This document shows positions 4,410 to 60,299 of a stretch of DNA of 60,561 nucleotides, in pieces. Positions within the stretch are counted from its first letter, which is position 1, and the number at the start of each line of letters is the position of its first letter. This DNA comes from a virus. Location of the stretch: IMG/VR virus record IMGVR_UViG_3300034069_000591, positions 1 to 60,561 of that record; one strand, given 5' to 3'. A program made the translations under genes and the position numbers. The notes below the pieces were generated by a model. The model did not search any database, was not told where the DNA came from, and worked only from the letters and a program-made list of their open reading frames with translations.

Positions 4410-4446
4410 TTGCGCGCCGTGTTTCCCCGGTAATACGCTCGCGGTC
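4410..4446 (+). promoter_or_regulatory. leaderless-type promoter (TTGCGC, 18 nt, TACGCT)
   Basis: TACGCT at 4434-4439 lies 8 nt before ATG 4447. CCCCGGTAATACGCTC box. No SD. Confidence 0.55.
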
Positions 4447-4638
4447 ATGGGAACAGACACCATCACCGCACGGCCCGCCGTCGGCTCCATCATCGTCCGC
4501 GACGGCGTCGAGTACGTCGTCACCGCCTACCCGACGGCGAACCTCGACGTCCTCTCCGACGTCGTGTTCATCCGCAAGGTCGGCGGTAAGCGCTCCGTCC
4601 GCGCGAACCTCTCCAAGCTGCTCGGCGGTGCCCGATGA
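4447..4638 (+). CDS. hypothetical protein (63 aa, starts MGTDT)
   Basis: ATG lies 8 nt after TACGCT with no SD. Internal start within track ORF 4171..4638. Confidence 0.6.
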   Translation: MGTDTITARPAVGSIIVRDGVEYVVTAYPTANLDVLSDVVFIRKVGGKRSVRANLSKLLGGAR

Positions 4639-5000
4639 TCGGCTGCACCCGCGTCGCCGAGGGCGACACCATCGTCGACGGCCGCCGCACCGGCACCGTC
4701 ACCCTCGTCTCGCGCGACATGCCCCGCATCGTCGCCGTCGACTTCGAGGGCGTCCTCTCGATCGTCGACCTCGACGCCGTGCTCGTGCGCGACGTCCACT
4801 CCACGGCCGACTTCACCGCGTACCTCGCCTCCGAGAACGGGTGGGAGCTCGGCCGCACCGAGGTCGTCGTCCGGCAGATGCTGCTCGACGCCGGCCTCCC
4901 GCGCTGGTCCGCCATGACCGAGCTCGCATGGCTCGCGCTGTCGGCCGCGTACTTCGCCGCCGACGTCCACGCGGCGACCTGGCGGGAGCTCGGCGCATGA
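4635..5000 (+). CDS. hypothetical protein (121 aa)
   Basis: Track ORF. ATGA overlap. Confidence 0.65.
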   Translation: MIGCTRVAEGDTIVDGRRTGTVTLVSRDMPRIVAVDFEGVLSIVDLDAVLVRDVHSTADFTAYLASENGWELGRTEVVVRQMLLDAGLPRWSAMTELAWLALSAAYFAADVHAATWRELGA

Positions 5001-5482
5001 CCGTCGCGCGGATCCCCGCTGACCTCGACCAGGACGCCGTCGACGCGCTCCAGGCCGGCGTCGCGCAACCCGGCGTGTTCTACGTCACCTTCGGGCAGAA
5101 GTACCGCTCCGAGCCGCACCCCGCGTGGATCAACGCGGACCCCGACGGCGTGCTCGTCGTGCTCTACACGCCCGACCTCGACGAGCCCGCGAGCCCCGTC
5201 CCGTGCGCGCACTGCGGCCTCCGCGTCGTCGCCGCCGAGCGCGGGACGTGGGTCCACGAGGACGGCCACGTCGCGTGCTACGGCTACGAGCAGACCGGTG
5301 GCAGCGTCGCGACGCCCCGCACCGCGACGGACGCGAACGGACGACTGCTCACCGACGCCCGCGAGCGCGCCCGGCAGGCCGTCTACGCGTGGCTCGGCGG
5401 CCTCTACGCGTTCGACTACGACTCCGTCGCCCCCGAGCACAACCCCCGCGGCGTGCTCGGCGTGCTCGACCTCCGAGCATGA
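4997..5482 (+). CDS. hypothetical protein (161 aa)
   Basis: ATG 4997 in an ATGA overlap. Internal start within track ORF 4628..5482. Confidence 0.65.
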   Translation: MTVARIPADLDQDAVDALQAGVAQPGVFYVTFGQKYRSEPHPAWINADPDGVLVVLYTPDLDEPASPVPCAHCGLRVVAAERGTWVHEDGHVACYGYEQTGGSVATPRTATDANGRLLTDARERARQAVYAWLGGLYAFDYDSVAPEHNPRGVLGVLDLRA

Positions 5483-5838
5483 GCAACCTCCCCGAGGGCG
5501 TCACGCCGGCGATGATCGACCGCGCGTTCGGCGGGCCCCTCTCGGACGCGTGGACGGGCGACCTCGAGTGCGACCACGAGGACCGCCTCGGCGAGCTCTG
5601 GGAGGAGGGCGAGGCCGGGTCCTACGACGACCCGGGCGACCCCGACACCGGCTACCCGCCGTACCTCGCGCTCGCCGCGCAGCCGACCAAGTTCACCGAC
5701 CGCACCACCGACGTCACCGTCTGGGACGCCGGCGGGGCCGTCACCGTCACGTGGGTCTGCCCCGCGTGCGGACGCGGCCACGAGGAGACGTACGACGCCT
5801 CCGACTTCGCAGACGACACCGACCCGTACGAGGACTAG
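5479..5838 (+). CDS. hypothetical acidic protein with a CPACG motif (119 aa)
   Basis: ATG 5479 in an ATGA overlap. Confidence 0.6.
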   Translation: MSNLPEGVTPAMIDRAFGGPLSDAWTGDLECDHEDRLGELWEEGEAGSYDDPGDPDTGYPPYLALAAQPTKFTDRTTDVTVWDAGGAVTVTWVCPACGRGHEETYDASDFADDTDPYED

Positions 5839-5842
5839 GACC

Positions 5843-6352
5843 ATGACCAAGCAGCACGACCACACCACGTTCGCCGCGAACCTGCACGAGGTCGCGACCT
5901 TCATCGGCCGCCTCCCCGCGGACGTCCCGATCCCGAGCGTCACGAACGACCTCATCCGGTTCGCCGTCTACTCCGAGGTGCGCGACGAGCAGTTCCGCGT
6001 CGTGCGGACCGTCCCGCAGGAGGTCCGCGCGATCGCCCGCGCGCTCGGCGGCCGGTGGGAGAAGAACGACCCCGAGGCCAACACGTTCGACGAGCTCTAC
6101 TACACGCTCACCTCCGCGATCGTCGTCGGCGGGCGCCCCGTGCAGATCCTCTGCTCCCGCAACGACGTCTGCGAGCGGATCGAGGTCGGCCGCGAGAAGG
6201 TCATCGTGCCCGCGAAGGAGGCGCAGGAGGCCGAGCCCGAGCGCGAGGAGGAGCGCCCCGTCTACCGGTTCGAGTGCCGCCCGCTGAACGACGCCGCCGG
6301 CCGCGAGCTCGCCGACGTCCTCCAGGAGCTCGAGGAGGTGCAGCCCGCATGA
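5843..6352 (+). CDS. hypothetical protein (169 aa)
   Basis: Track ORF. Confidence 0.65.
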   Translation: MTKQHDHTTFAANLHEVATFIGRLPADVPIPSVTNDLIRFAVYSEVRDEQFRVVRTVPQEVRAIARALGGRWEKNDPEANTFDELYYTLTSAIVVGGRPVQILCSRNDVCERIEVGREKVIVPAKEAQEAEPEREEERPVYRFECRPLNDAAGRELADVLQELEEVQPA

Positions 6353-6666
6353 CGCACCTCGACGTCGTGTTCGACGGCGCTCCCGGCCCCGAGGGTCCCC
6401 GCTTCATCGAGGTCGAGGACGAGCAGGGCGCGAGCGTCTCCGCCGGATCGTGGGTCGACCGAGGCGACGGCACCTGGGCGCTCCGCCTCGAGCGGCCGAT
6501 CCTGCCCGGCGACCTCGTCGAGCACCGGTCCAAGCCCGAGCTCGACGAGCGCGAGGTCGTCTCGGTCGGCCGAGACTTCCTCACGCTCAACCTCCTCGGC
6601 CGCGAGTCCACGCGACTCCCGCTCGACAACTACCGCGTCACCCGACCGCGCGAGGGCGTGCTCTGA
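6349..6666 (+). CDS. hypothetical protein (105 aa)
   Basis: ATG 6349 in an ATGA overlap. Confidence 0.6.
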   Translation: MTHLDVVFDGAPGPEGPRFIEVEDEQGASVSAGSWVDRGDGTWALRLERPILPGDLVEHRSKPELDEREVVSVGRDFLTLNLLGRESTRLPLDNYRVTRPREGVL

Positions 6667-7137: not shown

Positions 7138-7173
7138 TTGTGCGCGGTGCTTCCCCGGTAATACGCTCTCCAC
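7138..7173 (+). promoter_or_regulatory. leaderless-type promoter (TTGTGC, 18 nt, TACGCT)
   Basis: TACGCT at 7162-7167 lies 7 nt before ATG 7174. Same CCCCGGTAATACGCTC box. Confidence 0.55.
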
Positions 7174-7386
7174 ATGGGAACCGCCACCGCCACCTCGCTC
7201 AAGCAGCTCCGCGCCATGCGCGCCGAGTTGCACACCGACCTCGCCAAGCAGGCGCTTATCGTCGAGTCGCTCGACCGACCGGGCGTCGACCCCGCCCGCC
7301 TCGAGCGCGCCTCCGAGCAGATGGAAGCCATGCACATCGAGCTCACCGACCTCGACCGCGTCATCGCCAAGGCGGTCGCGGCATGA
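7174..7386 (+). CDS. hypothetical coiled-coil protein (70 aa, starts MGT)
   Basis: Track ORF. ATG lies 7 nt after TACGCT with no SD. Confidence 0.6.
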   Translation: MGTATATSLKQLRAMRAELHTDLAKQALIVESLDRPGVDPARLERASEQMEAMHIELTDLDRVIAKAVAA

Positions 7387-8507: not shown

Positions 8508-8545
8508 CCGCGTCCCCGCCCCTAGCAACGACGGTACGTCCACGG

Positions 8546-8557
8546 TAGACTCGTCCG
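8546..8557 (+). promoter_or_regulatory. leaderless-type promoter (TAGACT)
   Basis: The hexamer ends 7 nt before GTG 8558. Confidence 0.5.
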
Positions 8558-8836
8558 GTGCCCGAGACGCCCCGCGAGCCCCGCCCCGAGCCCGACCTCG
8601 CGTCCCTCCACGAGGCGATCACCGCCCTCGGCCGCGCGCTGTTCGAGGCGATCCGCCCCGTCGCCGAGCAGATCATCCGCGCGCTCGCCGAGCTCGAGCG
8701 CCACATCCGCAAGACCGACGCCGCCCGGCAGGACGCCGACGCCCTCCGCGCCGCCCGGGACTTCACCCGGCTCCCGTCGCTGCCCCCGGCCGACCCCCGC
8801 CTCCGCGGCGCAGCGTTCCGCCACCGCGGACGCTGA
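8558..8836 (+). CDS. hypothetical protein (92 aa)
   Basis: Track ORF. GTG lies 7 nt after TAGACT. Confidence 0.55.
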   Translation: MPETPREPRPEPDLASLHEAITALGRALFEAIRPVAEQIIRALAELERHIRKTDAARQDADALRAARDFTRLPSLPPADPRLRGAAFRHRGR

Positions 8837-10024: not shown

Positions 10025-10049
10025 GCGTATTACGTAATACGCTCGCGGG
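10025..10049 (+). promoter_or_regulatory. 18-bp perfect palindrome GCGTATTACGTAATACGC overlapping the TACGCT -10 (operator plus promoter)
   Basis: Palindrome at 10025-10042. TACGCT at 10038-10043 lies 7 nt before GTG 10050 of the RHH gene. Confidence 0.6.
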
Positions 10050-10343
10050 GTGGCTGACGACATCGCGAAGGTGCGCTCGATCCGCACCACCGACGCCCTC
10101 TGGGCCGACCTCGGGGAGCGGGCCAAGGTCGCCGGCAAGCCGCGCGGCACGTACGTCGTGGATCAGCTCGAGCGGCCGTCGTTCTCGGCCGCGCTCGAGA
10201 CGGCGGAGACGGTCCTCGACGAGGACGGCCGCGCCGCGGTGCTCGAGCTCGCCGGCGAGGGGCCGCTCGCCGGGTGGACCGCGTCGAGGATGCGGGCGCT
10301 CGCGGCCGGCCTCAACGCCCTCGCGAGCCGGTGGCCCCGCTGA
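10050..10343 (+). CDS. ribbon-helix-helix (Arc/CopG-like) DNA-binding protein
   Basis: VRSIRTTDALWADLGERAKVAGKPRGTYVVDQLE fits a beta-alpha-alpha RHH pattern. The gene sits behind an 18-bp palindrome. Confidence 0.6.
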   Translation: MADDIAKVRSIRTTDALWADLGERAKVAGKPRGTYVVDQLERPSFSAALETAETVLDEDGRAAVLELAGEGPLAGWTASRMRALAAGLNALASRWPR

Positions 10344-14799: not shown

Positions 14800-15077
14800 C
14801 CACGTGCCACTGCGACGGCCCGCCGCACCCCTACGACCCGTCATGGTGCATCCGCCCCCGGTTCGACGTCGAGCCGTCCCGCCCGCTCCCCGCCGGCGCG
14901 ACGATCGTCGGCCTCGAGGGCGCCTACGCGATCGTCGCTGTCCCGCTCGCGGCGTCGTGCCCCGGATGCGGCCACCTCGCGTCGCAGCACGGCCCCAACG
15001 GGTGCCTCGAGTGGGTCGGGACCGCATGCACCTCGCCGTGCTCCTGCTCGATCCGGACGGTACGCTCCCGGCCGTGA
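14796..15077 (+). CDS. Cys-rich protein (93 aa)
   Basis: ATGA overlap. Confidence 0.55.
   Translation: MTTCHCDGPPHPYDPSWCIRPRFDVEPSRPLPAGATIVGLEGAYAIVAVPLAASCPGCGHLASQHGPNGCLEWVGTACTSPCSCSIRTVRSRP
15061..15073 (+). promoter_or_regulatory. internal leaderless-type promoter (TACGCTCCCG)
   Basis: TACGCT lies 8 nt before GTG 15074. Same 10-mer as at 29861. Confidence 0.35.
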
Positions 15078-15831: not shown

Positions 15832-15843
15832 CACACTGCTCGG
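15832..15843 (+). promoter_or_regulatory. leaderless-type promoter (CACACT)
   Basis: Ends 7 nt before GTG 15844. Confidence 0.4.
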
Positions 15844-16086
15844 GTGGACTGGACCAGCCTCCCCGTGACCGTCGAGCGCCTCGACACGTTCACGTGGCCG
15901 GACCACGACCTCCAGGCCGAGCACCTCGAGCGGCCGCACGAGGCCCGCCCCGCCGACGCGCTTCCCGTCCACGCCGAGCAGCTCGTCGACGGATCGCTCT
16001 ACGTCCACGACGGCCGCCACCGGATCCTCCGCGCCCTCGCCCGCGGCGACGAGACGATCGAGGCACGAGTCCTCGAGCACCCGTGA
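15844..16086 (+). CDS. small ParB/Srx-like domain protein
   Basis: LVDGSLYVHDGRHRILRALARGDETIEARVL resembles the DGxHR core of ParB N-terminal domains. GTG lies 7 nt after CACACT. Confidence 0.5.
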   Translation: MDWTSLPVTVERLDTFTWPDHDLQAEHLERPHEARPADALPVHAEQLVDGSLYVHDGRHRILRALARGDETIEARVLEHP

Positions 16087-16874: not shown

Positions 16875-17041
16875 ACACCGCCGAGCCCGGCACGACCCCG
16901 TGCGGTGCCCGCATGCCGATGGGCCGCCACCCCGCCCGCCCGCACCGCGGCGACCACCAGTGCGTCGAGGCCCCGCACGTCGCGACACACTGGCACCGGT
17001 GCTGGTGCGGATACCAGTGGGGCGAGGTCGACCCGGCGTAG
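16871..17041 (+). CDS. hypothetical Cys/His-rich protein (56 aa)
   Basis: GTGA overlap. Confidence 0.45.
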   Translation: MNTAEPGTTPCGARMPMGRHPARPHRGDHQCVEAPHVATHWHRCWCGYQWGEVDPA

Positions 17042-17051
17042 CCTCCCGGGC
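17039..17051 (+). promoter_or_regulatory. leaderless-type promoter (TAGCCT, sharing its TAG with the upstream stop)
   Basis: Ends 8 nt before ATG 17052. Confidence 0.4.
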
Positions 17052-17333
17052 ATGGCCACCACCAGCAAGACCAGCGCCCGCGCGACCGCGATCGAGTCGC
17101 CCGTCGAGGCGACCGCCACCGAGCAGGAGTCTGTCACCGCCCTCACGCCCGACGACGTGCAGGACGTCGCGCCCGCCGACCCGCGGCAGGTCGGCGAGAA
17201 GGTCCGCCTCACGAACGACCGCGGCGAGGACGTCATCGGGACCGTCGTCGCGCCCGTCGACGACCACCACGTCCTCGTGCAGGCGCACGGCGTCGAGGCG
17301 TCCGTCGCCCTCTCCAAGCTCAAGTCCGCGTAG
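17052..17333 (+). CDS. hypothetical protein (93 aa)
   Basis: ATG lies 8 nt after TAGCCT with no SD. Confidence 0.55.
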   Translation: MATTSKTSARATAIESPVEATATEQESVTALTPDDVQDVAPADPRQVGEKVRLTNDRGEDVIGTVVAPVDDHHVLVQAHGVEASVALSKLKSA

Positions 17334-17501: not shown

Positions 17502-17518
17502 GCCCCCCGCCGGGGGGC
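17502..17518 (+). terminator. 7-bp hairpin GCCCCCC-GCC-GGGGGGC
   Basis: Read directly. Lies just upstream of the TAGTGT promoter. Confidence 0.35.
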
Positions 17519-17522
17519 GCCC

Positions 17523-17535
17523 TAGTGTGGCCGTC
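17523..17535 (+). promoter_or_regulatory. leaderless-type promoter (TAGTGT)
   Basis: Ends 8 nt before ATG 17536, followed by ATGGGAACAGACACCA. Confidence 0.5.
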
Positions 17536-17931
17536 ATGGGAACAGACACCACCACCATGACCGCGCCCGACCTCCCGGGCCCCGACCGCCTCGACCCCGA
17601 CGGGCTCCTCGCCGGCACCGCCGAGGTCTACGCGTGGGCCGGCGCTCGCGGCCACAGCTTCACCGAGGAGGACGACCTCCGCCGGCGCGGTTCGACCCCC
17701 GTCCCGTACCGCGCCGCGCTGCTCGACGCGTGGCTCCTCGCCGGGCAGCACGACCACGCTCGCCTCCGCACGATCCACCCCGAGTACGCGGGCGCGATGC
17801 TCGTCTACAAGATGCGGGGCCTCGCCGGCGTCCGAGAGTTCCTCGACGCGCTCGAGGCCGACGTCGCCGACCTCACCGAGCAGCGTCGCCGCTCGACGTG
17901 GCAGCCCGCCCGCGCGACGGTGACCCGATGA
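17536..17931 (+). CDS. hypothetical protein (131 aa, starts MGTDT)
   Basis: ATG lies 8 nt after TAGTGT. The first 17 nt are identical to the gene at 4447. Confidence 0.6.
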   Translation: MGTDTTTMTAPDLPGPDRLDPDGLLAGTAEVYAWAGARGHSFTEEDDLRRRGSTPVPYRAALLDAWLLAGQHDHARLRTIHPEYAGAMLVYKMRGLAGVREFLDALEADVADLTEQRRRSTWQPARATVTR

Positions 17932-20942: not shown

Positions 20943-20968
20943 CCTACCGGGCGGGCGTGCTTCCCCGG

Positions 20969-20980
20969 TAGACTCGGGGC
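20969..20980 (+). promoter_or_regulatory. leaderless-type promoter (CCCCGGTAGACT)
   Basis: TAGACT ends 7 nt before ATG 20981. Confidence 0.55.
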
Positions 20981-21280
20981 ATGGGAACCGAGTTCATCAA
21001 CGCGCACTCCTGCCCGACGTGCGGCCTCCGCGCCGACGCCGTGACGGGCCTCAAGGACAGCGAGCATCCCGACGACGGGGCGCTCTCCATCTGCATCCGC
21101 TGCCTCACCGTCGCGGTGTTCGAGACGTTCGCCGGGCACGTCGCCGTGCGGCCGATCCGCCCCGAGGAGCTCGAGGCCGCGCGCCGCGACCCGAAGTGGA
21201 CCGAGACCCTCGCGAACCTCGACCGGGCGCGCGAGGACCGGGCGACGCGGCGGCACTTCATGGCCGGCGGCGCCGCGTGA
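20981..21280 (+). CDS. zinc-ribbon-like protein (99 aa, starts MGT)
   Basis: ATG lies 7 nt after TAGACT. Contains CPTCG...CIRC. Confidence 0.6.
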   Translation: MGTEFINAHSCPTCGLRADAVTGLKDSEHPDDGALSICIRCLTVAVFETFAGHVAVRPIRPEELEAARRDPKWTETLANLDRAREDRATRRHFMAGGAA

Positions 21281-22417: not shown

Positions 22418-22429
22418 TACCCTGCACGG
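22418..22429 (+). promoter_or_regulatory. leaderless-type promoter (TACCCT)
   Basis: Ends 7 nt before GTG 22430. Confidence 0.45.
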
Positions 22430-22672
22430 GTGGCCCAGCCGACCGCTCAGACCGACCTCTCCCCGCAGGAGCGGAGCGTCGCGTCCCTGTTCGCGGTCGA
22501 CGGGCTCCGCGTCGCCGAGGTGGCCGATCGGCTCGGCCTGACCGTCGAGACGACCAAGTCCTACCTCAAGCGGGCCCGGTCCAAGTACCGGGCCCGCGGC
22601 GTCGACGCCTCCACCCAGCACCGCCTCCGCGTCGCCCTCGAGGCCGACCGGGAGACGACCCCGACGTCGTGA
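22430..22672 (+). CDS. LuxR/sigma-70-region-4-type HTH protein (80 aa), a possible small terminase or late regulator
   Basis: LSPQERSVASLFAVDGLRVAEVADRLGLTVETTKSYLKRARSKY is a GerE-type HTH. GTG lies 7 nt after TACCCT. GTGA overlap with TerL. Confidence 0.6.
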   Translation: MAQPTAQTDLSPQERSVASLFAVDGLRVAEVADRLGLTVETTKSYLKRARSKYRARGVDASTQHRLRVALEADRETTPTS

Positions 22673-24810: not shown

Positions 24811-24822
24811 CACACTGGCCCC
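24811..24822 (+). promoter_or_regulatory. leaderless-type promoter (CACACT)
   Basis: Ends 7 nt before GTG 24823. Confidence 0.4.
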
Positions 24823-25320
24823 GTGCGACGCCCCAGCCGCGAGCCCGGGCTCGCCGACTCGACGCCCGCCGGCCGCCCGCAGGTGCCCGCCGCGACGCTC
24901 GTCGGCGGGGTGCTCGCCGGCGCCGCGCTCGGGGTCCTCATGGTCGTCGGCGCGATCGTCGTCCTCGCCGCGACGCCGCTCGACCCGCCGCCCGTGTTCA
25001 CCCGCGGCCACGTCCCCGCCGTCGTGACGCCGTCGCCGATGCTCGTCGACAACGACGTCGACTCGGAGCCGCTGCACCGCGACGGGTTCCGCGCCGAGCC
25101 CGCCGAGCCGCCGGCCGCGATCGTGCTTCCGACCCCGACCGCTCGCGCGACCCCGCGGCCCGCGCGCTCGCACCGGCCCGCCGCCCGTGCGACGCCGCAC
25201 CCGAAGCCGCGCCCTCCGGCGTCCGCGGTAGTACCAACGCCGCGCCCGACCGCCGTCCGACCGGCGCCGGCGCCCGACCGGCCGTGCGTGATCGGGGTCC
25301 TCGGCCTCTGCATCGCCTAG
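24823..25320 (+). CDS. membrane-anchored Pro-rich protein (165 aa)
   Basis: Track ORF with one TM and a long Pro/Ala/Arg-rich tail. GTG lies 7 nt after CACACT. Confidence 0.55.
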   Translation: MRRPSREPGLADSTPAGRPQVPAATLVGGVLAGAALGVLMVVGAIVVLAATPLDPPPVFTRGHVPAVVTPSPMLVDNDVDSEPLHRDGFRAEPAEPPAAIVLPTPTARATPRPARSHRPAARATPHPKPRPPASAVVPTPRPTAVRPAPAPDRPCVIGVLGLCIA

Positions 25321-25396
25321 GCGCGTCGCCGCCGCGTACGCCCGCGCGCGACTCGTACCGTGGCACCCGCACCGACCGTCTACCGAGGGAGACTCC

Positions 25397-27995: not shown

Positions 27996-28035
27996 CCTCC
28001 GCGCGTCGCGCGTGGACGGCCGTACTCCCGCGCGC

Positions 28036-45553: not shown

Positions 45554-45565
45554 CACCCTGGTCGC
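45554..45565 (+). promoter_or_regulatory. leaderless-type promoter (CACCCT, weak)
   Basis: Ends 7 nt before ATG 45566. Confidence 0.3.
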
Positions 45566-46201
45566 ATGACCGTCGGCCACCTCACCTCCGCGCAGCTCGT
45601 GACCGTGCAGGGCTCGATCGCCCTCGGCAAGGTCGCCGCGGCGGACTTCCGATCCCTCAAGGCGGAGGTCAAGCGCAAGCTCGGCCGCACCATCGCGATC
45701 GCGGGCCCCGCCGGCGGCTACCGGTCCGAGGCCGTGCAGCACGCCATGCACCTTGCCGGCGCCGGCTCGTCCGCCGCCGCGAAGGTCCGGTGGGGCCTCA
45801 ACCCCCGCTCGACGGTCGCGATCGCCGACCACCCGCTCGGCACTCACGAGGACGGCCTCGCGTTCGACGTCGTCGGCACCCCGCTCGACTCCGCGTTCCT
45901 CGCGATCGCGCTCAAGTGGGGCTTCAAGCTCCAGTTCCCGGGACGCGACCCGAACCACCTCCGCCACTACGGCGCGCAGCGCACCAAGCCGGTCGTCGCC
46001 GCGGTGCACAAGGTCACGAAGCCGGCCTCGGCGAAGGTCACCTACGTCGTGCGCTCCGGCGACACCCTCACGAAGATCGCGGCGCTCTACTCCGACCCCC
46101 GCGACAAGAAGGTCGACGTCGACGTCGAGGACCTCCTCCGCCTCAACCCGGGGATCGTGCCGACCGCCCTCCGCATCGGGCAGAAGGTCCGCGTCGCGTG
46201 A
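45566..46201 (+). CDS. endolysin: M15 (VanY-like) peptidase plus LysM domain
   Basis: PLGTHEDGLAFDV and DPNHLRH are Zn-peptidase motifs. The C-terminal YVVRSGDTLTKIAALY...LRIGQKVRV is a LysM domain. Confidence 0.75.
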   Translation: MTVGHLTSAQLVTVQGSIALGKVAAADFRSLKAEVKRKLGRTIAIAGPAGGYRSEAVQHAMHLAGAGSSAAAKVRWGLNPRSTVAIADHPLGTHEDGLAFDVVGTPLDSAFLAIALKWGFKLQFPGRDPNHLRHYGAQRTKPVVAAVHKVTKPASAKVTYVVRSGDTLTKIAALYSDPRDKKVDVDVEDLLRLNPGIVPTALRIGQKVRVA

Positions 46202-46467: not shown

Positions 46468-46479
46468 TACCCTCGCCCC
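46468..46479 (+). promoter_or_regulatory. TACCCT promoter upstream of the tRNA-like element
   Basis: GTACCCTCGCCCC. The predicted +1 at 46480 lies 49 nt before the tRNA-like 5' end. Confidence 0.45.
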
Positions 46480-46524
46480 ATGCACACGCCGGTCGAGCTC
46501 CGCTCCCGGTATCCGCGCGCCTGA
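46480..46524 (+). other. 14-codon mini-ORF (MHTPVELRSRYPRA) at the predicted 5' end of the tRNA-like transcript
   Basis: ATG lies 7 nt after TACCCT. May be incidental. Confidence 0.2.
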
Positions 46525-46528
46525 GCAC

Positions 46529-46606
46529 GCCGCGGGCGCAGGGACGCACGGCCGACTGTAAATCGGCCCCCGATCGGGTAGCGAGGTTCGAGTCCTCGAC
46601 GCGGCA
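46529..46606 (+). tRNA. tRNA-Tyr(GTA)-like element with a non-canonical D-arm
   Basis: Anticodon arm GCCGA-CTGTAAA-TCGGC. Long variable arm. T-arm CGAGG-TTCGAGT-CCTCG. Six-bp acceptor helix (46529-34/46600-05). The D region is only about 15 nt. No encoded CCA. Confidence 0.5.
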
Positions 46607-46626: not shown

Positions 46627-46638
46627 TACCCTGCATCC
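46627..46638 (+). promoter_or_regulatory. leaderless-type promoter (TACCCT) of the modification operon
   Basis: Ends 7 nt before GTG 46639. Confidence 0.5.
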
Positions 46639-47283
46639 GTGACCGACACCCCCATCGAGGTCGCCACCGTCCCGCTCGCGGAGCTCCGGGAGTACCCCGG
46701 CAACCCCCGCCGCGGCGACGTCGAGGCGATCGCCGCGTCCCTCGAGGCGAATGAGCAGTTTCAGCCCCTGATCGTGCAGCGCTCGACCGGGTTCGTCCTC
46801 TCCGGCAACCACACCCTCGCCGCCATGCGGATGCTCGGATGGGAGGCGGCCGACGTCCGCTACGTCGACGCCGACGACGACCGCGCCGCGCGCATCGTGC
46901 TCGCCGCGAACCGCACGCACGAGCTCGGCGGGTTCGACGACACCGCGCTCCTCGCGCTGCTCCGCGCGACGCCCGACCTCGACGGCACCGGCTACGACTC
47001 CCGGTTCCTCGACGACCTCGCCTCGTCGCACGCCGAGCCGTACACCGACGACGAGGTCAAGGCCCTCGTCCACAAGCCGATCTTCACCTCGGACGGATCC
47101 CGCACCTCCGCCGGCCGCCGCATCATCGTCCTCGACATGCCCTCGCCCGTGTACGGGTGGGTCGTCGAGGCCCTCGGCGTCGTGCGCGAGCGACACGGCC
47201 TCGCCTCGAACCTCGACGCCCTCGCGTGGCTCCTCGGCGCGCACGTCGCGACGCTGCCCGAGCGCCCGGCGGTGATCGCGTGA
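46639..47283 (+). CDS. ParB N-terminal (Srx-fold) domain protein with a C-terminal RHH-like domain, paralogue 1
   Basis: ELREYPGNPRRGDVEAIAASLEANEQFQPLIV...VLSGNHTLAAMRMLG. C-terminal RIIVLDMPSPVYGWVVEALGVVRERHGLASNLDALAWLL. Confidence 0.7.
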   Translation: MTDTPIEVATVPLAELREYPGNPRRGDVEAIAASLEANEQFQPLIVQRSTGFVLSGNHTLAAMRMLGWEAADVRYVDADDDRAARIVLAANRTHELGGFDDTALLALLRATPDLDGTGYDSRFLDDLASSHAEPYTDDEVKALVHKPIFTSDGSRTSAGRRIIVLDMPSPVYGWVVEALGVVRERHGLASNLDALAWLLGAHVATLPERPAVIA

Positions 47284-48817: not shown

Positions 48818-49728
48818 CCGGCAACGCGGACGCGATCGCCACGTACGCCCGGTGGCACCGCGCGCAGGTCGAGACCAACGACCTCGACCCCGCGTACCCG
48901 GTCCTCCGGTTCGTCGCCGACGGGTGGCACCTCGACGCCGAGCAGCGCGCGTGGCTCGCCGTCTGCCACGTCACCCTCTACCACCTCGCCTCCACCCTCG
49001 CGATGTTCGAGCGCTACCCGTCGCCGGCGGACCTCCCCGAGGACGGCGAGGCCCTCATCGGCCTCCCGACCGCGACCGAGCGCCGCGGCCTCCGCGACCC
49101 GCGCGCCCGCGTCCGGCACCTCCGAGCGCTCCGCCGCGCGATGGTCGGCGGCGCCCGCGAGTGGCTCGGCGGCGACGGGTGGCAGTGGGACGTCCTGAAC
49201 GACCGCATCACCCGCATCCACGGCAACGGCCGGTGGGCGTCGTACAAGCTCGCCGAGCTGCTCCAGAAGGTCGCCGACGTCCCCACGCAGGCCCTCGACG
49301 CCGGCCACGCGCACTCCTCCGGCCCCCGCAAGGGCCTCGGGCTCCTCTGGTCGCACCTCCCCGCCGACAACGGCCCCGCCGCGATCGCGCTCCTCGACTG
49401 GGCCACCGCCGACCTCGGCCGCCGGATCGGCGAGCCCGACGTCGCGCAGGTCGAGACGTCGCTATGCGACTGGTACTCCCTGAACCGCGGTCACTACTAC
49501 CTCGGCCACGACATCGACGCCATGCTCGCGCAGCTCCGCTCGCCCTACGCGCCCCGCCTCGGGTACGAGCTCGCGATGGACGCCCGCTCGGCCGTGTTCG
49601 CCGGCGAGAGGCTCGGCGAGCTCGGCGGCTGGGAGGGACCGCGGCGCCACGCGAAGCAGCTCTACCTCGCCACGGGTACGTTCGACCCGTGCTGCACATC
49701 GAGGGCCTCGGAGTTACCGGCGCGCTGA
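48814..49728 (+). CDS. aGPT-Pplase-like protein (putative amino-acid:DNA transferase)
   Basis: All-helical. NGRWASYKLAELL, SSGPRKGLG and ETSLCDWY resemble the family as recalled. Lies between the dioxygenase and kinase genes. Confidence 0.5.
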   Translation: MTGNADAIATYARWHRAQVETNDLDPAYPVLRFVADGWHLDAEQRAWLAVCHVTLYHLASTLAMFERYPSPADLPEDGEALIGLPTATERRGLRDPRARVRHLRALRRAMVGGAREWLGGDGWQWDVLNDRITRIHGNGRWASYKLAELLQKVADVPTQALDAGHAHSSGPRKGLGLLWSHLPADNGPAAIALLDWATADLGRRIGEPDVAQVETSLCDWYSLNRGHYYLGHDIDAMLAQLRSPYAPRLGYELAMDARSAVFAGERLGELGGWEGPRRHAKQLYLATGTFDPCCTSRASELPAR

Positions 49729-52762: not shown

Positions 52763-52774
52763 CATCGTGGGAGC
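52763..52774 (+). promoter_or_regulatory. leaderless-type promoter (CATCGT, weak)
   Basis: Ends 7 nt before GTG 52775. Confidence 0.3.
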
Positions 52775-53230
52775 GTGCCGAACCAGTCTCCTCCGCGACT
52801 CCTCGACATGCCGGGGCTCGCGGGGCCGAACATGCTCGGCACCATCGCGTTCCGCAACCTCATGCAGGTCGGCTACGGGCTCAACGTCCTGATCGCCGGC
52901 GGAGGCTCGGTGCAGTTCCTGCTCGGCGACGACGCCGCGAAGGTCTGGGCGCTCGTCGTCGTCGCGTGCTCGATCACCGCCCTCGCCGGCTGCTACCTCA
53001 CCGCCAAGACCGGCGACACCCGCCTCGAGCTCTGGTCCTCGATCGGCGTCCTCGCGACCTACGCCGGGCAGATGGTCGCCGTCATCCTCTGCGTGCTCTA
53101 CGCGATCGGCCCCAACGGGCTCCTCCCGTTCTGGTGGCCGGCCGCGATCGCCGCGCAGACCCTCTGGCGGATCCGCAACATTGTCCGCTCGGAGAGGGCG
53201 AAGGACGCAGCAGCAAGGCGCCGCGCATGA
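52775..53230 (+). CDS. membrane protein (about 4 TM), a holin candidate
   Basis: GTG lies 7 nt after CATCGT. Alternative starts at ATG 52808 and ATG 52832. Confidence 0.55.
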   Translation: MPNQSPPRLLDMPGLAGPNMLGTIAFRNLMQVGYGLNVLIAGGGSVQFLLGDDAAKVWALVVVACSITALAGCYLTAKTGDTRLELWSSIGVLATYAGQMVAVILCVLYAIGPNGLLPFWWPAAIAAQTLWRIRNIVRSERAKDAAARRRA

Positions 53231-53643
53231 ACGACGACCTCCTCAAGATCGTCGTCACCGGCGCGTTCATGGTCCTCGTCGCCGTCATCACCGGCCTCTG
53301 GGCCCGCAGCAACAAGAAGGTCGCCGAGCCGACCCCGATCGAGCGACTCTGGGACCGCCTCGACAAGCTCGAGGCGAAGGCGCAGACGCAGGGCGAGACG
53401 ATCGAGACGCAGGGCGGCACGATCAGCCGCCTCACCCGCGAGGTCACCGCGCTCAAGGACACCGTCGTCGCGTACCGCGGCGGGTTCCTCGCGCACGTCT
53501 CGTGGGCCGACCGCGTGCAGGCCGCGCACACCGGCTCGACCCCGATCGTCGCGTTCACGCCCGGCGAGCAGGCCGCGATCCGGCGCGGGCTCGACATGGT
53601 CGCGCTCGAGCGACTCTCCGCCGACGAGGACCAACAGGCGTAG
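53227..53643 (+). CDS. membrane-anchored coiled-coil protein (138 aa)
   Basis: ATGA overlap. N-terminal TM followed by a coiled coil. Confidence 0.6.
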   Translation: MNDDLLKIVVTGAFMVLVAVITGLWARSNKKVAEPTPIERLWDRLDKLEAKAQTQGETIETQGGTISRLTREVTALKDTVVAYRGGFLAHVSWADRVQAAHTGSTPIVAFTPGEQAAIRRGLDMVALERLSADEDQQA

Positions 53644-53653
53644 CCTCTCCGCC
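53641..53653 (+). promoter_or_regulatory. leaderless-type promoter (TAGCCT, sharing its TAG with the upstream stop)
   Basis: Ends 8 nt before ATG 53654. Confidence 0.4.
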
Positions 53654-53878
53654 ATGAGCGCCGACGAGATCACCGCCCGGTTCAAGGGCGTCGAGAACAG
53701 CCCTCCCGCGACGCCTGAGCAGCTCGAGCGCGTCGGCAAGATCCGCTCCAAGGTGGTCGAGCTCGCGCACGCGATCGACGAGGGCGACCTCGAGCCGCGC
53801 TACCGTGCGACCGCCCTCACCGAGCTCGAGGGCGCCGCCATGTTCGCGGTCAAGGGCGTGTTCGCGCCGCGCGAGTAG
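53654..53878 (+). CDS. hypothetical protein (74 aa)
   Basis: Track ORF. ATG lies 8 nt after TAGCCT. Confidence 0.55.
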   Translation: MSADEITARFKGVENSPPATPEQLERVGKIRSKVVELAHAIDEGDLEPRYRATALTELEGAAMFAVKGVFAPRE

Positions 53879-53888
53879 CCTCGGCCGC
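53876..53888 (+). promoter_or_regulatory. leaderless-type promoter (TAGCCT, sharing its TAG with the upstream stop)
   Basis: Ends 8 nt before ATG 53889. Confidence 0.4.
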
Positions 53889-54308
53889 ATGGCCACCGAT
53901 CACCTCTCGCCGGCGGACACCACCGCCCTCCTCCTCGCGTTCGGCTATCCCGCGCCGGCCGCCGACGAGCTCACCGCCGGACTCCGCGACGTCGTGCAGG
54001 ACTTCCAGCGCGACGCCGGGCTCAACCCGTCCGGCAACCTCACCCTCGAGACGGTCCGCCGGCTCCGCTCCCGCCCGACGCTCCAGGCCGGCGACGTCCG
54101 CGTCGAGGTCCGCGCGTTCCAGCAGGCGATGCGCGCCCGCGGGTTCCGTCTCCGCGTCTCCGGCGTGTTCGGGCAGGACGACCTCAACGCGCTGAACGAG
54201 TATCAGGGGCAGGTCGGCATCACCCGCTCCGGGGTCGTCGACGCCGAGACGTGGGAGGCACTGGGATGGGCACTGCCGGCAACGGACGGATCACCGTCGA
54301 CGGACTGA
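53889..54308 (+). CDS. tandem peptidoglycan-binding (PG_binding_1-like) domain protein
   Basis: Two repeats of the VxxFQ..xGLxxxGxxxxxT pattern (DFQRDAGLNPSGNLTLETV; EYQGQVGITRSGVVDAETW). Confidence 0.65.
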   Translation: MATDHLSPADTTALLLAFGYPAPAADELTAGLRDVVQDFQRDAGLNPSGNLTLETVRRLRSRPTLQAGDVRVEVRAFQQAMRARGFRLRVSGVFGQDDLNALNEYQGQVGITRSGVVDAETWEALGWALPATDGSPSTD

Positions 54309-54794: not shown

Positions 54795-54827
54795 GCCTCT
54801 CTGGCGGGCGTCTGGCGTCGCTCCGGC

Positions 54828-54839
54828 TACCCTCAGCGC
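54828..54839 (+). promoter_or_regulatory. leaderless-type promoter (TACCCT) of the HNH gene
   Basis: Ends 7 nt before GTG 54840. Confidence 0.45.
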
Positions 54840-55277
54840 GTGGTGGACGAGCACGTAGCGCGATTCTGGTCGAGGGTCGCGGTCCGCGGCAGGCACAAGT
54901 GCTGGCTATGGCGCGGCCCGACCGACGACGACGGCTACGGCCTGACCCGGTTCCGCGGGCCCAACCGACGAGCGACGCACGTCGCGCTCGAACTCGACGG
55001 TCGCCCGCTGCTTCCGGGCGAGGTCGCTCGGCATACGTGCGACACCCCGCGATGCGTGAACCCCCTGCACCTCGTCGCCGGCACACAGCGCGACAACGCG
55101 CAGGACAAGCTCGATCGAGGGCGCGGTCACCGTCAGCGCCTAATGCTGGCCGACGCGCTCGAGATTCGGCGACGTGCCGGGCTTGGTGAACGACCGGCCG
55201 ACCTCGCTCGCGAGTATGGCGTCTCGCCCGCGCACATCAGCAACATCATCGCTGGAAGGACGTGGATCAGTGGTTGA
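54840..55277 (+). CDS. HNH homing-type endonuclease (HNH_3-like) with a C-terminal HTH
   Basis: CWLWRGPTDDDGYG...ATHVA...HTCDTPRCVNPLHLVAGTQRDNAQD. GTG lies 7 nt after TACCCT. Confidence 0.85.
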   Translation: MVDEHVARFWSRVAVRGRHKCWLWRGPTDDDGYGLTRFRGPNRRATHVALELDGRPLLPGEVARHTCDTPRCVNPLHLVAGTQRDNAQDKLDRGRGHRQRLMLADALEIRRRAGLGERPADLAREYGVSPAHISNIIAGRTWISG

Positions 55278-56322: not shown

Positions 56323-56408
56323 GACGGCTCGGAGCGGGGCCCAGCGATGCGCGTACTCCCACGGTAGCGGGTGGCGCTGACGCATGCCCCTGCTCAGAAG
56401 GGAACAGC

Positions 56409-58732: not shown

Positions 58733-58759
58733 CGTCTACCGTCCGCGGTGCTCCCCCGG

Positions 58760-58772
58760 TAATATGCCCCCC
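58760..58772 (+). promoter_or_regulatory. leaderless-type promoter (CCCCGGTAATAT)
   Basis: TAATAT ends 8 nt before ATG 58773. Confidence 0.55.
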
Positions 58773-59063
58773 ATGGCTACCCCGGAACAGCAGGAGCGCG
58801 CGGCCCGGCTCCGCTCCTCACTCGTGCTCAAGGCGAAGGAGCTCGAGGAGGCGGAGAAGGCAGTCGACCGTCTCCGCGAGCAGCGCCGCACCCTCATCCT
58901 CGCCGGCCGCGAGGACGCGACCCTCAGCTACGTCGAAATGGCGAAGGCGTCGGGCCTGTCCAAGCCGCAGGTCTACAAGATCGTCCGCGACGGGTTCAAG
59001 GAGGCGCCCATCGGCGAGTGGGCGAAGGCCAACGCCGACGTCGAGGAGCCCGTCTCCGCGTGA
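58773..59063 (+). CDS. HTH DNA-binding protein (96 aa)
   Basis: SYVEMAKASGLSKPQVYKIVRDG. ATG lies 8 nt after TAATAT. Confidence 0.55.
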   Translation: MATPEQQERAARLRSSLVLKAKELEEAEKAVDRLREQRRTLILAGREDATLSYVEMAKASGLSKPQVYKIVRDGFKEAPIGEWAKANADVEEPVSA

Positions 59064-59374
59064 GCGCCGTACTCCTCGCCCCCACCCTGACCGTCGGCGA
59101 CGCCGCGGAGGCGTTCACCCACGCGCGCCTCGGCGAGCAGCTCGTCTGCCGCGAGCCCGACGAGGACGGCGTCGAGACGCCCGGCCTCACCGCCTCCGAC
59201 TGGGGCGACGACGGCCCCCGCGAGAAGGACGCCGCGGTCGCCTGCATGCGGTGCGCGGTCGTCGCCGAGTGCGGGATCTACGCCCTCGTGGCCCGCGAGC
59301 CGCTCGGCGTCTGGGGCGGCATGACGAGCACCGAGCGTCGACGCATTCTCCGACGGTCCGGCGTCCGTCTCTGA
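59060..59374 (+). CDS. whiB: WhiB-family transcription factor
   Basis: Four Cys (C...CMRCAVVAEC) followed by GVWGGMTSTERRR. Confidence 0.85.
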   Translation: MSAVLLAPTLTVGDAAEAFTHARLGEQLVCREPDEDGVETPGLTASDWGDDGPREKDAAVACMRCAVVAECGIYALVAREPLGVWGGMTSTERRRILRRSGVRL

Positions 59375-59410
59375 CCCCCGACGGGGTGGCCCTCGGTCGT
59401 ACTCCCCCGG

Positions 59411-59423
59411 TAGACTCTGGGGC
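59411..59423 (+). promoter_or_regulatory. leaderless-type promoter (CCCCGGTAGACT)
   Basis: TAGACT ends 8 nt before ATG 59424. Confidence 0.55.
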
Positions 59424-60299
59424 ATGGGAACACCGCACTTCACTGTCCTGACCGACGGCCTCGACGAGGTCACATGGCGCGAGCAGCGCCGCCCCGGCGT
59501 TACCGCCACTGACGTCGCGCGACTGCACTCCGGCGGCGCCGGGACGTGGGCCGCGATCCGCGCCGAGAAGCAGGGCACCGAGCCCGACTTCACCTTCCCC
59601 GCGATGCAGCACGGCAAGGATCGCGAGCCCGTCATCGCCCGGTTCGCCGAGCGCCGGTTCGGTCTCCGCCCCTCGCGCGCCGTGCTCGCCGCGGTCGACG
59701 ATCCCCGGTGGCGGGCGACGCCCGACGGGATCGGCGACGCCGCCGTCGGCGAGTACAAGACCACCGTCGTCGACTGGCCCACCCTCGACGACCTCCCCGT
59801 CCCGTACTACGACCAGGCGACCTGGCAGATGCGCGTCACCGGCCTCCGCGAGGCGCACCTCGTGTTCGAGGCCCACGAGGGCGGGATTCCGCTCCACATG
59901 GAGCCGCGGTCGTTCCTGATCCGGTACGACGACGTCTACGCCCGCGAGCTCGAGGAGGTCGCCGAGCGGTTCCTCGCCGCGGACACCGCGCCGGACCCTC
60001 GCGCCGCCGAGCTCGACGCGCTGATCAGCCTCCACCTCGAGGCGAAGGCCCTCGAGAAGGCAGCGGCCGACCGCGTCGAGGCGATCGGGCAGCAGGTCCG
60101 CGACCTCGTCGGAGGCGACGAGGGCAAGTTCATATTCGAGGGCTCCTACGGCAACCTCACCCTCGGCAAGACCTCGACGCGCGCCGGGTTCGATCGCGCC
60201 GGCCTCGAGGCCGAGGCCCCCGAGCTCGCCAAGAAGTACGCCACCACCATCAGCGTCCGCGGGCGCCTCACGATCAGCGCCCGGAAGGCAGACCGATGA
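59424..60299 (+). CDS. YqaJ/lambda-Exo-like recombination exonuclease
   Basis: GVTATDVARL and the PD-(D/E)xK-like TPDGIGDAAVGEYKTT. ATG lies 8 nt after TAGACT. Confidence 0.85.
   Translation: MGTPHFTVLTDGLDEVTWREQRRPGVTATDVARLHSGGAGTWAAIRAEKQGTEPDFTFPAMQHGKDREPVIARFAERRFGLRPSRAVLAAVDDPRWRATPDGIGDAAVGEYKTTVVDWPTLDDLPVPYYDQATWQMRVTGLREAHLVFEAHEGGIPLHMEPRSFLIRYDDVYARELEEVAERFLAADTAPDPRAAELDALISLHLEAKALEKAAADRVEAIGQQVRDLVGGDEGKFIFEGSYGNLTLGKTSTRAGFDRAGLEAEAPELAKKYATTISVRGRLTISARKADR

Follow-up and report, generated by a model that had tools for sequence, protein, structure and literature searches.

Start-adjacent TANNNT hexamers in an uncultivated high-GC phage genome: probable host-type -10-only promoters of leaderless genes

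In actinobacterial hosts, a TANNNT hexamer lies 7-12 nt before 73% of transcription start sites (TSSs), frequently with CGN ahead of it and with no -35 consensus, and about a quarter of the genes of such hosts are leaderless (PMC3898074). In silico, leaderless genes are recognized by a TANNNT whose first T stands ~12 nt before the start codon (PMC3160421), and in mycobacteria an ATG or GTG at the 5' end is required, and is also enough, for leaderless translation (PMC4633059). Among phages, three predicted leaderless SigA promoters per genome have been described in Cluster O mycobacteriophages (PMC4351075). Here, the virus record IMGVR_UViG_3300034069_000591 of IMG/VR was analysed over its whole length of 60,561 nt, hereafter called the window, in which TANNNT hexamers stand at a fixed distance before the start codons of many genes. 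The analysis indicates that these hexamers are probably -35-less -10 elements for the primary SigA-type holoenzyme of the host, yielding leaderless mRNAs.

Distances are given as the gap, that is, the number of nucleotides between hexamer and start codon; a gap of 6-7 nt puts the last T at -7/-8. To avoid circularity, genes were called by a motif-blind caller from codon statistics alone, which returned 120 starts. TANNNT was found at a gap of 6 or 7 nt before 15 of these 120 starts, compared with 0.5% of other ATG/GTG codons (P ~1e-16), and the histogram of offsets over the 0-19 nt upstream contained eight hexamers at gap 6, seven at gap 7, one at gap 8, and none at any other distance. In the whole window, the hexamer occurs 47 times on the + strand versus 10 times on the - strand. 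Of the 47, 20 have an ATG or GTG downstream at gap 6-7, as opposed to 0/10 on the - strand, and 31 fall within or border on non-coding sequence, which makes up 5.6% of the window. The fixed spacing, proposed in a preliminary description of this DNA, stood up to shuffled controls: 10 + 10 pattern matches were found, all on the + strand, with ~3 expected per pattern, and none of 100 dinucleotide shuffles reached 10. Furthermore, gene calls from an independent assembly and annotation coincided with the hexamer-adjacent starts at 19 of the 21 sites covered, including the weak sites 15844, 28048, and 45566.

All 24 hexamers listed in the preliminary description were found where it had placed them, 6 or 7 nt before a start codon, and most of the 24 are indeed gene starts. 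The exception at 46480 is a 14-codon open reading frame (ORF) ending at tRNA-Tyr, not a protein gene, and the hexamer at 46468 is predicted to be the promoter of the tRNA rather than of a protein gene. At 15074 and 52775 the hexamers are present, but both gene callers choose other starts (Table 1). The list had missed one site, 49689 (TACGTT, gap 6), which precedes a gene for an FAD-oxidoreductase-like protein. The GTG start is supported by a Rossmann GxGxxG motif at the N-terminus (residues 6-11), and the independent annotation has the same start. The claim that every gene following a gap and lacking a Shine-Dalgarno (SD) sequence has a hexamer proved too broad, with exceptions at 11009, 26925, and 52808. 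Also overlooked was a longer conserved element at a subset of sites, which extends past the start codon.

A and T at positions 2 and 6, respectively, are present in 20 strict sites, and a further five sites retain this A and T but carry C or G at position 1. These are the two most important positions of a -10 element, their bases being flipped out by sigma. The base just before the hexamer is G at 13/20 sites, with CGG at ~5 (raw counts read from the aligned sites). Across the 24 sites, the start codons are 12 ATG and 12 GTG, with no TTG, and the -1/+1 context is pyrimidine-purine at 19/24. No -35 enrichment was detected, the best TTGACA match 16-19 nt upstream scoring 2.44 versus 2.37 at random positions, and no E. 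coli-type two-hexamer promoters were found; both results fit the -10-only class of promoters. The spacing also separates starts that codon statistics cannot (17527 versus 17536, 58764 versus 58773). Automatic callers sometimes take an in-frame start a few codons upstream, within or overlapping the hexamer (17527, 58764, and 3955 in the related contig L012); on sequence grounds, the starts picked by the hexamer rule (17536, 58773, and 3979 of L012) are more plausible.

Start-adjacent hexamers and SD sequences exclude each other. Taking an anti-SD duplex of -8 kcal/mol as the threshold, an SD was called for 0/17 genes with a hexamer among those following a gap of at least 5 nt, versus 12/19 without one (Fisher 4.5e-5). 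The 15-kb virion block between 30191 and 45566 is SD-led and contains no hexamer-plus-start site, and virion genes have the strongest SDs; strong SDs had been noted for them in the preliminary description. Its proposal that downstream genes follow by translational coupling is in line with the RTGA overlaps found at 59 of 119 junctions. A partition of the genome into short transcription units, more than 20 in number, was in contrast not supported: convincing terminators are few, and none with a T-tail was detected on the + strand. A scan for perfect-stem hairpins placed 5 of 76 stems in intergenic regions and gave no discrimination in this 73% GC genome. Since terminators are scarce, the promoters probably add mostly to read-through transcription on a one-directional genome. 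A hairpin ahead of most sites had also been reported; this applies to half of them, 8 of 16 stop-to-hexamer intervals folding at z <= -2 (mononucleotide shuffles), and in two of the eight the stem takes in the hexamer itself. Hairpins without a T-tail follow some stops of the head module (30122). Directly after the head-module gene 33059-33985, a perfect 16-bp stem with an 8-nt loop (34028-34068) is probably the strongest terminator or attenuator of the genome; the 51-aa ORF that spans it (33990-34145) is doubtful.

Signatures of selection were found inside genes as well as at the sites. Antisense TANNNT occurs 4 times in genes versus 15-17 expected from synonymous-codon shuffles, none of 300 shuffles being as low, and sense TANNNT is mildly depleted (11 versus 17-18 expected). 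This depletion fits avoidance of spurious, chiefly antisense, promoters. Nine hexamers include a TAG stop, and in all three TAGCCT hexamers (17052, 53654, and 53889) the TAG is the stop codon of the upstream gene. NNT follows TAG stops in 9 of 23 cases, three times the expectation (P = 0.0013), and TAG is the preferred stop where a gap follows. This enrichment and preference suggest that stop codons have been recruited into -10 elements and that the overlap is no artefact.

Conservation was followed in a relative at ~70% protein identity, represented by the contigs L004, L010, and L012 of one sample; L005 was also compared, and L013 is a relative at 60%. The ~70% relative has 13 TANNNT on the + versus 2 on the - strand, 7 of them in leaderless geometry. 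At the orthologous junctions of terS, 17536, 58773, 59424, 29874, and 30191, T-A-N3-T and a gap of 6-7 nt are kept, with changes in the middle bases and the spacer and even a switch of the gap between 6 and 7 nt. The terS (22430) hexamer and gap recur in L004 and L005. Hairpin, TANNNT, 7-nt gap, and ATGGGAACA are all kept at 17536 in L004. The sites of 58773 and 59424 are kept in L010, the latter as TAGCAT with a 6-nt gap and ATGGGAACA, and those of 29874 (TACCGT + 6 nt + ATGA) and 30191 (TACCCT + 6 nt + GTG 3979) in L012, where the hexamer rule points to 3979 rather than 3955 as the start. Even the weak site 28048, GACGAT + 7 nt in L012 versus CACAAT, keeps A, final T, and upstream block. Hexamers farther from the start are likewise retained before the portal gene (35 nt in the window, 37 nt in L004, 38 nt in L006) and the scaffold-position gene (TACTGT at 29 nt in the window, TAGCCT at 24 nt in L012). 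Two orthologous pairs differ, 29557 being SD-led in L012 and 20981 coupled in L005; switches between leaderless and other start modes have been described for bacteria (PMC3160421). The spacing grammar, its statistics, the signatures of selection, and this conservation are direct observations.

From this pattern, we infer that polymerase initiates at the sites and that the RNAs are translated in leaderless form. RNA polymerase-SigA would initiate 6-7 nt past the hexamer, on the start codon or no more than one base away from it; the mRNA would have neither a 5' untranslated region nor an SD, ribosomes would translate it from its 5' end, and later genes in each run would be reached through RTGA/TGATG coupling. 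The leaderless form would serve ~19 small early, accessory, and inserted genes and, in addition, the terS-like gene. For the portal and scaffold genes, the hexamer would be combined with a leader of 24-38 nt that contains an SD, and it would also drive the tRNA, with the abundant virion genes depending on strong SDs. Genes at the predicted leaderless sites encode a YqaJ exonuclease, a pair of helix-turn-helix (HTH) and WhiB proteins, a VapB-like antitoxin, an Acb2/Tad1-like anti-defence protein, an HNH-like endonuclease, LysM and peptidoglycan (PG)-binding lysis proteins, the terS-like protein, and many small proteins without assigned function. A phage sigma factor as reader of the hexamer was considered and rejected, the sole sigma-like match being the 80-aa region-4 HTH in terS position. 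No ORF of RNA polymerase size was found except the 1237-aa gene in tape-measure position. The SigA-type -10 interpretation of the preliminary description was upheld in every computational test run; its leaderless mRNAs keep the status of a prediction.

Several points weigh against this interpretation. The host is uncultivated, and the transcription starts are predictions from sequence; a 7-nt gap might place the start of transcription at -1 and thus give a 1-nt leader. Alternative starts are better supported at 15074 and 52775, the five CANNNT/NANNNT sites would be weak as -10 elements, and the TA of three hexamers comes from the upstream stop codon. Promoters with only a -10 element may require extra factors, and some sites are possibly silent or conditional. 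Convincing terminators are so few that the promoters delimit no separate units. Finally, a plain SigA promoter leaves the GTRCTYCCCCGG block and ATGGGAAC unexplained, and leaderless translation in mycobacteria has no sequence preference over +4 to +9 (PMC4633059).

Other readings of the hexamer have to be weighed against SigA-type promoters. The confinement of start-adjacent hexamers to genes without an SD could also be expected of a non-SD, A/U-containing element for ribosome loading or re-initiation inside long polycistronic mRNAs, and three copies do lie in 10-nt stop-start junctions where re-initiation is plausible. Such a role is nevertheless very improbable. Hexamers also precede tRNA-Tyr and lie, at conserved positions, 24-38 nt before portal and scaffold genes that have their own SD, which marks the hexamer, as far as sequence can tell, as a transcription signal and not a translation signal. 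The element would also leave the antisense avoidance of TANNNT unexplained, relatives keep exactly A2 and T6, and the distance to the start codon equals that from a -10 element to its TSS. Equally improbable is a by-product of history or composition without promoter activity, arising from duplicated cassettes, recombination 'linkers', or stop-derived TA. The ~55 nt over which sites 4419 and 7147 are similar, the TAG stops within nine hexamers, and the mosaicism of phage genomes, with its exchange of junctions, would suit such an origin; most sites, however, are alike only in T-A-N3-T and spacing, orthologous sites hold the spacing while their sequence changes, NNT is enriched after TAG, and both the strand bias and the in-gene avoidance point to selection on the hexamer. 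A more limited proposal takes only the three TAGCCT junctions (17052, 53654, and 53889) as translationally coupled stop-10 nt-start arrangements, the other sites being possible promoters. Their TA belongs to the stop codon, each of the three gaps measures exactly 10 nt, and TAGCCT also occurs at two stops with no start at 6-7 nt (27993 and 36336). This explanation is unlikely, given that L012 has a TAGCCT stop + 6 nt + ATG at another junction, that the 36336 copy lies 20 nt and copies in L012/L013 21-24 nt before SD-led genes, as leadered promoters would, and that TAGNNT enrichment suggests recruitment of the stop codon into the -10.

The conserved element attached to some sites raises a separate question within the promoter interpretation. 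Its upstream part, the 14-nt block GTRCTYCCCCGGTA abutting the hexamer, has 7 copies (<=2 mismatches), each of which lies on the + strand, between genes, and in one of the non-structural arms, and CCCCGGTA has 5 copies on the + strand and 0 on the - strand. Its downstream part, ATGGGAAC, occurs 5 times versus ~0.3 expected (a hand estimate from base composition), each copy following a TANNNT at 6-7 nt. The five 'MGT...' proteins that begin with ATGGGAAC were rejected as paralogues, since they showed no mutual similarity in an all-against-all BLASTP. Block and ATGGGAACA are kept in the ~70%-identity relatives while hexamer middle and spacer drift. The block is not a -35 element, because it lies only 6-9 nt from the -10. 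It is possible, though we propose it tentatively, that the composite subset consists of phage-specific regulated promoters using the HTH (58773) or WhiB (59060) protein, which would refine the SigA reading for these sites. Both proteins are encoded behind one composite site, phage Wbl proteins bind SigA region 4 (PMC13013590), and the strand and location of the copies, the shared start of non-homologous proteins, the conservation beyond the hexamer, the closeness of the block to the -10, and the lack of +4 to +9 preference in mycobacteria all point the same way. On the other side, no dyad of constant spacing exists, block and ATGGGAAC are sometimes separate (17536 has no block, 58773 no ATGGGAAC), recent duplication could explain the conservation, 4419 and 7147 sharing ~55 nt, factor binding by HTH or WhiB is a prediction from gene context, and a looser 'ctcccc...ccgggg TAnnnT' flavour in phage Waltz could equally be a host preference. 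It is somewhat doubtful that the composites (GTRCTYCCCCGG, TAnnnT, AUGGGAACA) form a distinct phage-controlled class read by a factor, or that AUGGGAACA tunes the translation or stability of leaderless mRNAs. Under that proposal, AUGGGAACA would be both the RNA 5' end and the first three codons of unrelated proteins, and the HTH-WhiB pair would act on SigA region 4 as a sigma-appropriation-like switch for -35-less leaderless promoters. The composite element may be a regulated early-promoter class or a recently spread cassette.

RNA folding gave insignificant z-scores around this element: the AUGGGAACA 5' ends shared no fold, and the upstream block was not found to sequester the start codon in read-through RNA. 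An operator formed by a TTCCC...GGGAA inverted repeat was rejected, its arms being 17-21 nt apart and its halves not always paired. When IMG/VR was scanned with the composite motif, two identical matches were returned, both in a coding region of 56% GC contigs and attributable to chance, and a generic direct-repeat search returned only GC-rich codon periodicity. CGTACT(C/A)CC recurs 6-15 nt upstream of promoter-like hexamers, at variable distance, both in the window (28021, 56352, and 59398) and in relatives (L004 ~6190; L012 ~1045 and ~2590).

The genome that carries these sites is 73% GC and has ~120 genes, all on the + strand, with a siphovirus-type structural block flanked on both sides by long arms of small genes. 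A 141-nt direct repeat at the window ends (1-141 and 60421-60561) and an independent assembly of the same phage from another run, a 60,419-nt contig, establish it as a complete, circularly closed metagenomic genome of ~60.4 kb (circle ~60,420 bp); gene 60296 crosses the junction into window positions 5-613. No integrase or repressor was found among the annotated subset of genes. The phage encodes a WhiB-like protein (59060-59374), a family restricted to Actinobacteria and their phages (PMC13013590). A Deinococcus-Thermus host, where leaderless genes are also abundant, is ruled out by this gene. The nearest cultured relatives by terminase are Arthrobacter and Microbacterium phages, distant at 40-44% identity, and a homologue of the YqaJ gene was found in an Agromyces prophage. 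WhiB, relatives, and homologue together point to an actinobacterial host, probably of the Micrococcales. A megablast of 20 kb against cultured phages gave zero matches, and a terminase-based search for related loci in viral and genome collections returned one unrelated 41% GC contig and nothing further. The HTH and WhiB-like genes form a short operon (58773-59374) with a composite site in front and the YqaJ recombination operon directly downstream; this gene order is kept in L010, and WhiB is also near YqaJ in the Agromyces prophage.

Table 1. Promoter-like sites and structural landmarks of the window. Callers are the automatic gene callers; positions of the structural genes are listed in the order of their names.
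Feature	Positions	Strand	Elements and gap	Start, gene, and remarks
Siphovirus-type structural block	22430; 22669; 25397; 26925	+		terS-like; terL; portal; MuF-like
Siphovirus-type structural block, continued	30648; 32003; 38151	+		Scaffold-position gene; major capsid protein; 1237-aa tape-measure-position gene
Composite site	4419..4454	+	Block GTGTTTCCCCGGTA; TAATAC/TACGCT hexamer 4434-4439; 7-nt gap; ATGGGAAC start	4447-4638; 63-aa product, no assigned function; start matched by independent annotation
Composite site	7147..7181	+	GTGCTTCCCCGGTA; TACGCT 7162-7167; 6-nt gap; ATGGGAAC start	7174-7386; two strong hairpins upstream; start matched by independent annotation
Composite-like site	8534..8560	+	GTACGTCCACGGTA (2 mismatches); TAGACT 8546-8551; 6-nt gap	GTG 8558; 14-bp hairpin upstream
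Hexamer site	10038..10052	+	TACGCT, within palindrome GCGTATTACGTAATACGC; 6-nt gap	GTG 10050
Doubtful site	15061..15076	+	TACGCT; 7-nt gap	GTG 15074 (GTGA overlap); both callers favour ATG 15026
Weak site	15832..15846	+	CACACT; 6-nt gap	GTG 15844; VapB-like antitoxin; no SD
Stop-overlapping site	17039..17054	+	TAGCCT (TAG = stop of 16871-17041); 7-nt gap	ATG 17052
Hairpin site	17502..17543	+	Hairpin GCCCCCCgccGGGGGGC; TAGTGT 17523-17528; 7-nt gap; ATGGGAAC start	17536-17931
Composite site	20957..20988	+	GTGCTTCCCCGGTA; TAGACT 20969-20974; 6-nt gap; ATGGGAAC start	20981-21280 (zinc-ribbon-like)
Hexamer site	22418..22432	+	TACCCT; 6-nt gap	GTG 22430; terS position; 80-aa HTH/sigma-region-4-like protein
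Weak site	24811..24825	+	CACACT; 6-nt gap	GTG 24823; probable membrane protein of 165 aa with a low coding score
Leadered promoter candidate	25356..25399	+	TACCGT 35 nt upstream; SD in between	Portal ATG 25397
Weak site	28021..28050	+	CGTACTCC block; CACAAT 28036-28041; 6-nt gap	ATG 28048
Hexamer site	29544..29559	+	TACGCT; 7-nt gap	GTG 29557 (106 aa, no assigned function)
Hexamer site	29861..29876	+	TACGCT in 3' end of 29557-29877; 7-nt gap	ATG 29874 (ATGA overlap)
Hexamer site	30179..30193	+	TACCCT; 6-nt gap	GTG 30191 (125 aa); hairpin upstream
Leadered promoter candidate	30613..30650	+	TACTGT 29 nt upstream; SD in between	ATG 30648 (scaffold position); probable start of ~15-kb SD-led structural operon
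Weak site	45554..45568	+	CACCCT; 6-nt gap	ATG 45566 (LysM protein)
tRNA site	46468..46605	+	TACCCT 46468-46473; 6-nt gap to A 46480	tRNA-Tyr 46525-46605
Hexamer site	46627..46641	+	TACCCT; 6-nt gap	GTG 46639 (214 aa, first right-arm gene)
Added site	49677..49691	+	TACGTT within upstream gene; 6-nt gap	GTG 49689
Doubtful weak site	52763..52777	+	CATCGT; 6-nt gap	GTG 52775; both callers favour ATG 52808
Stop-overlapping site	53641..53656	+	TAGCCT (TAG = upstream stop); 7-nt gap	ATG 53654 (Acb2/Tad1-like)
Stop-overlapping site	53876..53891	+	TAGCCT (TAG = upstream stop); 7-nt gap	ATG 53889 (protein with PG-binding domain)
Hexamer site	54828..54842	+	TACCCT; 6-nt gap	GTG 54840
Degenerate composite block	56353..56366	+	GTACTCCCACGGTA then TAGCGG	~43 nt upstream of SD-led gene 56409
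Composite site	58748..58775	+	GTGCTCCCCCGGTA; TAATAT 58760-58765; 7-nt gap	ATG 58773 (HTH protein, then WhiB 59060-59374); 11-bp hairpin directly after preceding stop
Composite site	59399..59431	+	GTACTCCCCCGGTA; TAGACT 59411-59416; 7-nt gap; ATGGGAAC start	YqaJ-like exonuclease 59424-60299

Several of the genes behind these sites have features of their own. The head-module sites precede three small ORFs and a fusion gene inserted between the MuF-like and scaffold-position genes. The fusion (28048-29232) joins a LigT-like 2H phosphoesterase ('2'-5' RNA ligase') to an XkdF-type serine protease domain, an arrangement retained in 34 metagenomic homologues, and its 2H domain could degrade cyclic-nucleotide signals. 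The 74-aa protein of gene 53654-53878, which has a leaderless-type site upstream, contains an Acb2/Tad1 hairpin domain (E = 2e-11) and is likely a sponge for cyclic-nucleotide defence signals. Gene 54840-55277 encodes a 145-aa His-Me/HNH-like endonuclease; its codon usage is atypical (score -10.8) and both automatic callers missed it, but it is a genuine gene. Its first codons (GTGGTGGACGAGCAC) nearly match those of the next gene, 55270 (GTGGTTGACGAGTCG). This near-repeat hints that a homing endonuclease was inserted here and copied the start of its target.

Other hexamers may serve non-coding RNAs. In the 193-nt gap before 17536, an Rfam match to the DUF3800-IX small RNA was found at 17348-17413 (+), with 60 bits versus a gathering score of 36.8, and TAGGGT at 17331-17336, which includes the upstream stop and ends 11 nt before this RNA, may be its promoter. 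No Rfam matches were obtained in the contigs of relatives examined. TAGGGT occurs five times on the + strand of the window (8438, 17331, 46300, 54488, and 56268) and also at L013 2413 and L005 1790, always at or just past a gene end and ahead of a long non-coding gap. The 54488 and L013 2413 copies have in common TAGGGTGA followed by a GGGG-loop-CCCCGGTG stem-loop. Judging by their placement, TAGGGT sites may be promoters of non-coding RNAs. The 350-nt non-coding gap at 54478-54828, upstream of the HNH-like gene, has a very stable predicted structure (z = -3.6) and gave no Rfam match.

These results bear on how such genomes are annotated and used. In high-GC actinophages, a TANNNT reliably points to a true start codon 6-7 nt further on, and the hexamer also flags a tRNA promoter. 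A one-directional genome of lytic appearance may depend for the most part on host-type -10-only promoters, and the use of leaderless starts for small early, anti-defence, and inserted genes, with SDs for virion proteins, mirrors the split in the host. With its antisense depletion of TANNNT, the phage gives a clear example of spurious promoters being selected against. As compact promoter-plus-start parts, the sites may be of use in high-GC Actinobacteria, and the composite sites offer a defined target for probing the function of the phage WhiB.

Among known systems, the closest parallel is found in the SigA -10-only, leaderless promoters of the hosts themselves (Mycobacterium tuberculosis, M. 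smegmatis, and Streptomyces; PMC3898074, PMC4633059, PMC3160421), which have the same first-T distance of 12-13 nt. As in actinobacterial leaderless genes, the sites have no -35, a purine at +1, ATG and GTG in about equal numbers, and no SD, and they lean to non-core genes, toxin-antitoxin genes included; the G or CGG before many hexamers may correspond to the CGN of the hosts. The leaderless share is ~16-20% of genes in the phage versus 19-26% in host genomes. In contrast to host chromosomes, whose TSSs have been mapped, the phage is known from sequence, and it adds a strong sense/antisense asymmetry as well as the extra block and start sequence.

In phages, initiation on the first base of the start codon is also predicted for PL1, PR2, and PL2 of Cluster O mycobacteriophages (PMC4351075) and for P90 of Adephagia (PMC11373665), one of them inside a structural operon. 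However, those promoters have recognisable -35 and -10 elements and number one to three per genome, whereas this phage has ~20 without a -35. The asymmetric intergenic repeats of Microbacterium phages (the 18-bp TAGaCTATaGGTgTaAgC of Cluster EC, in 12 copies, and those of Cluster EI; PMC7302621) begin with the same TAGACT-type hexamer. Together with the promoter of Microbacterium phage ValentiniPuff, they share with the window one-directional genomes of related hosts and a location in short gaps of the non-structural arms, between terminase and portal, and at head-module inserts; promoter-like sites inside the head module, which the preliminary description had called unusual, are therefore not so for this group. 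The hexamers it saw there are present. The EC/EI motifs and the ValentiniPuff promoter lie 22-70 nt before the start codon and are thus leadered, compared with 6-7 nt here, and their function was described as unknown. The Cluster EC motif TAGaCTATaGGTgTaAgC, found 22-30 nt before starts, has no match in the window at <=3 mismatches, only TAGACT being common. ValentiniPuff (L009) has a conventional promoter (cTTGnn...tcaTACCCTAGTATGAA) with 50-70 nt leaders, in six copies in the 50 kb examined (8175, 10172, 13396, 19215, 48699, and 48725), and ~46 genes between its protease and major capsid genes. The start-associated sequence (SAS) and extended SAS (ESAS) of Cluster K mycobacteriophages and Cluster EF Microbacterium phages (PMC7302621, PMC11373665) are also start-linked motifs of a non-structural gene subset with a second upstream block. 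SAS, however, occupies the ribosome-binding site and contains an SD, whereas the sites described here have no SD and resemble -10 elements. A search for an SAS-like 13-bp repeat, using a Cluster K consensus, gave one chance-level, wrong-strand match in the window. Classical morons of HK97 and lambda, genes inserted in late operons with transcription of their own, are flanked by promoter and terminator and expressed from prophages. The small non-structural genes 28048, 29557, 29874, and 30191 resemble them in having their own promoter-like hexamers within the head module, and some are absent or differently expressed in relatives; unlike classical morons, their terminators are unconvincing.

The density of leaderless geometry sets the window apart from the genomes compared. 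It is found at ~19/121 starts here (TANNNT 47 + versus 10 -), at 4/79 in Arthrobacter phage Waltz (125 + versus 111 -), and at 2/85 in ValentiniPuff in addition to its repeated leadered promoter (56 + versus 24 -). The 60% relative L013 has none, its sites being leadered only (8 + versus 1 -), and the Agromyces prophage region has 2 in the prophage, where leaderless-type sites lie at the immunity switch, and 2 in flanking genes (15 + versus 23 -). No open-access paper was found that connects leaderless expression with phages of Arthrobacter, Microbacterium, Gordonia, or Streptomyces, which is a weak negative. The kind of system is known from hosts and predicted in a few actinophages, and what stands out here is its unusual density: the window presents the known grammar of the hosts in dense, clean form, in an uncultivated phage clade that is new, together with a small conserved element that a plain SigA promoter does not explain.

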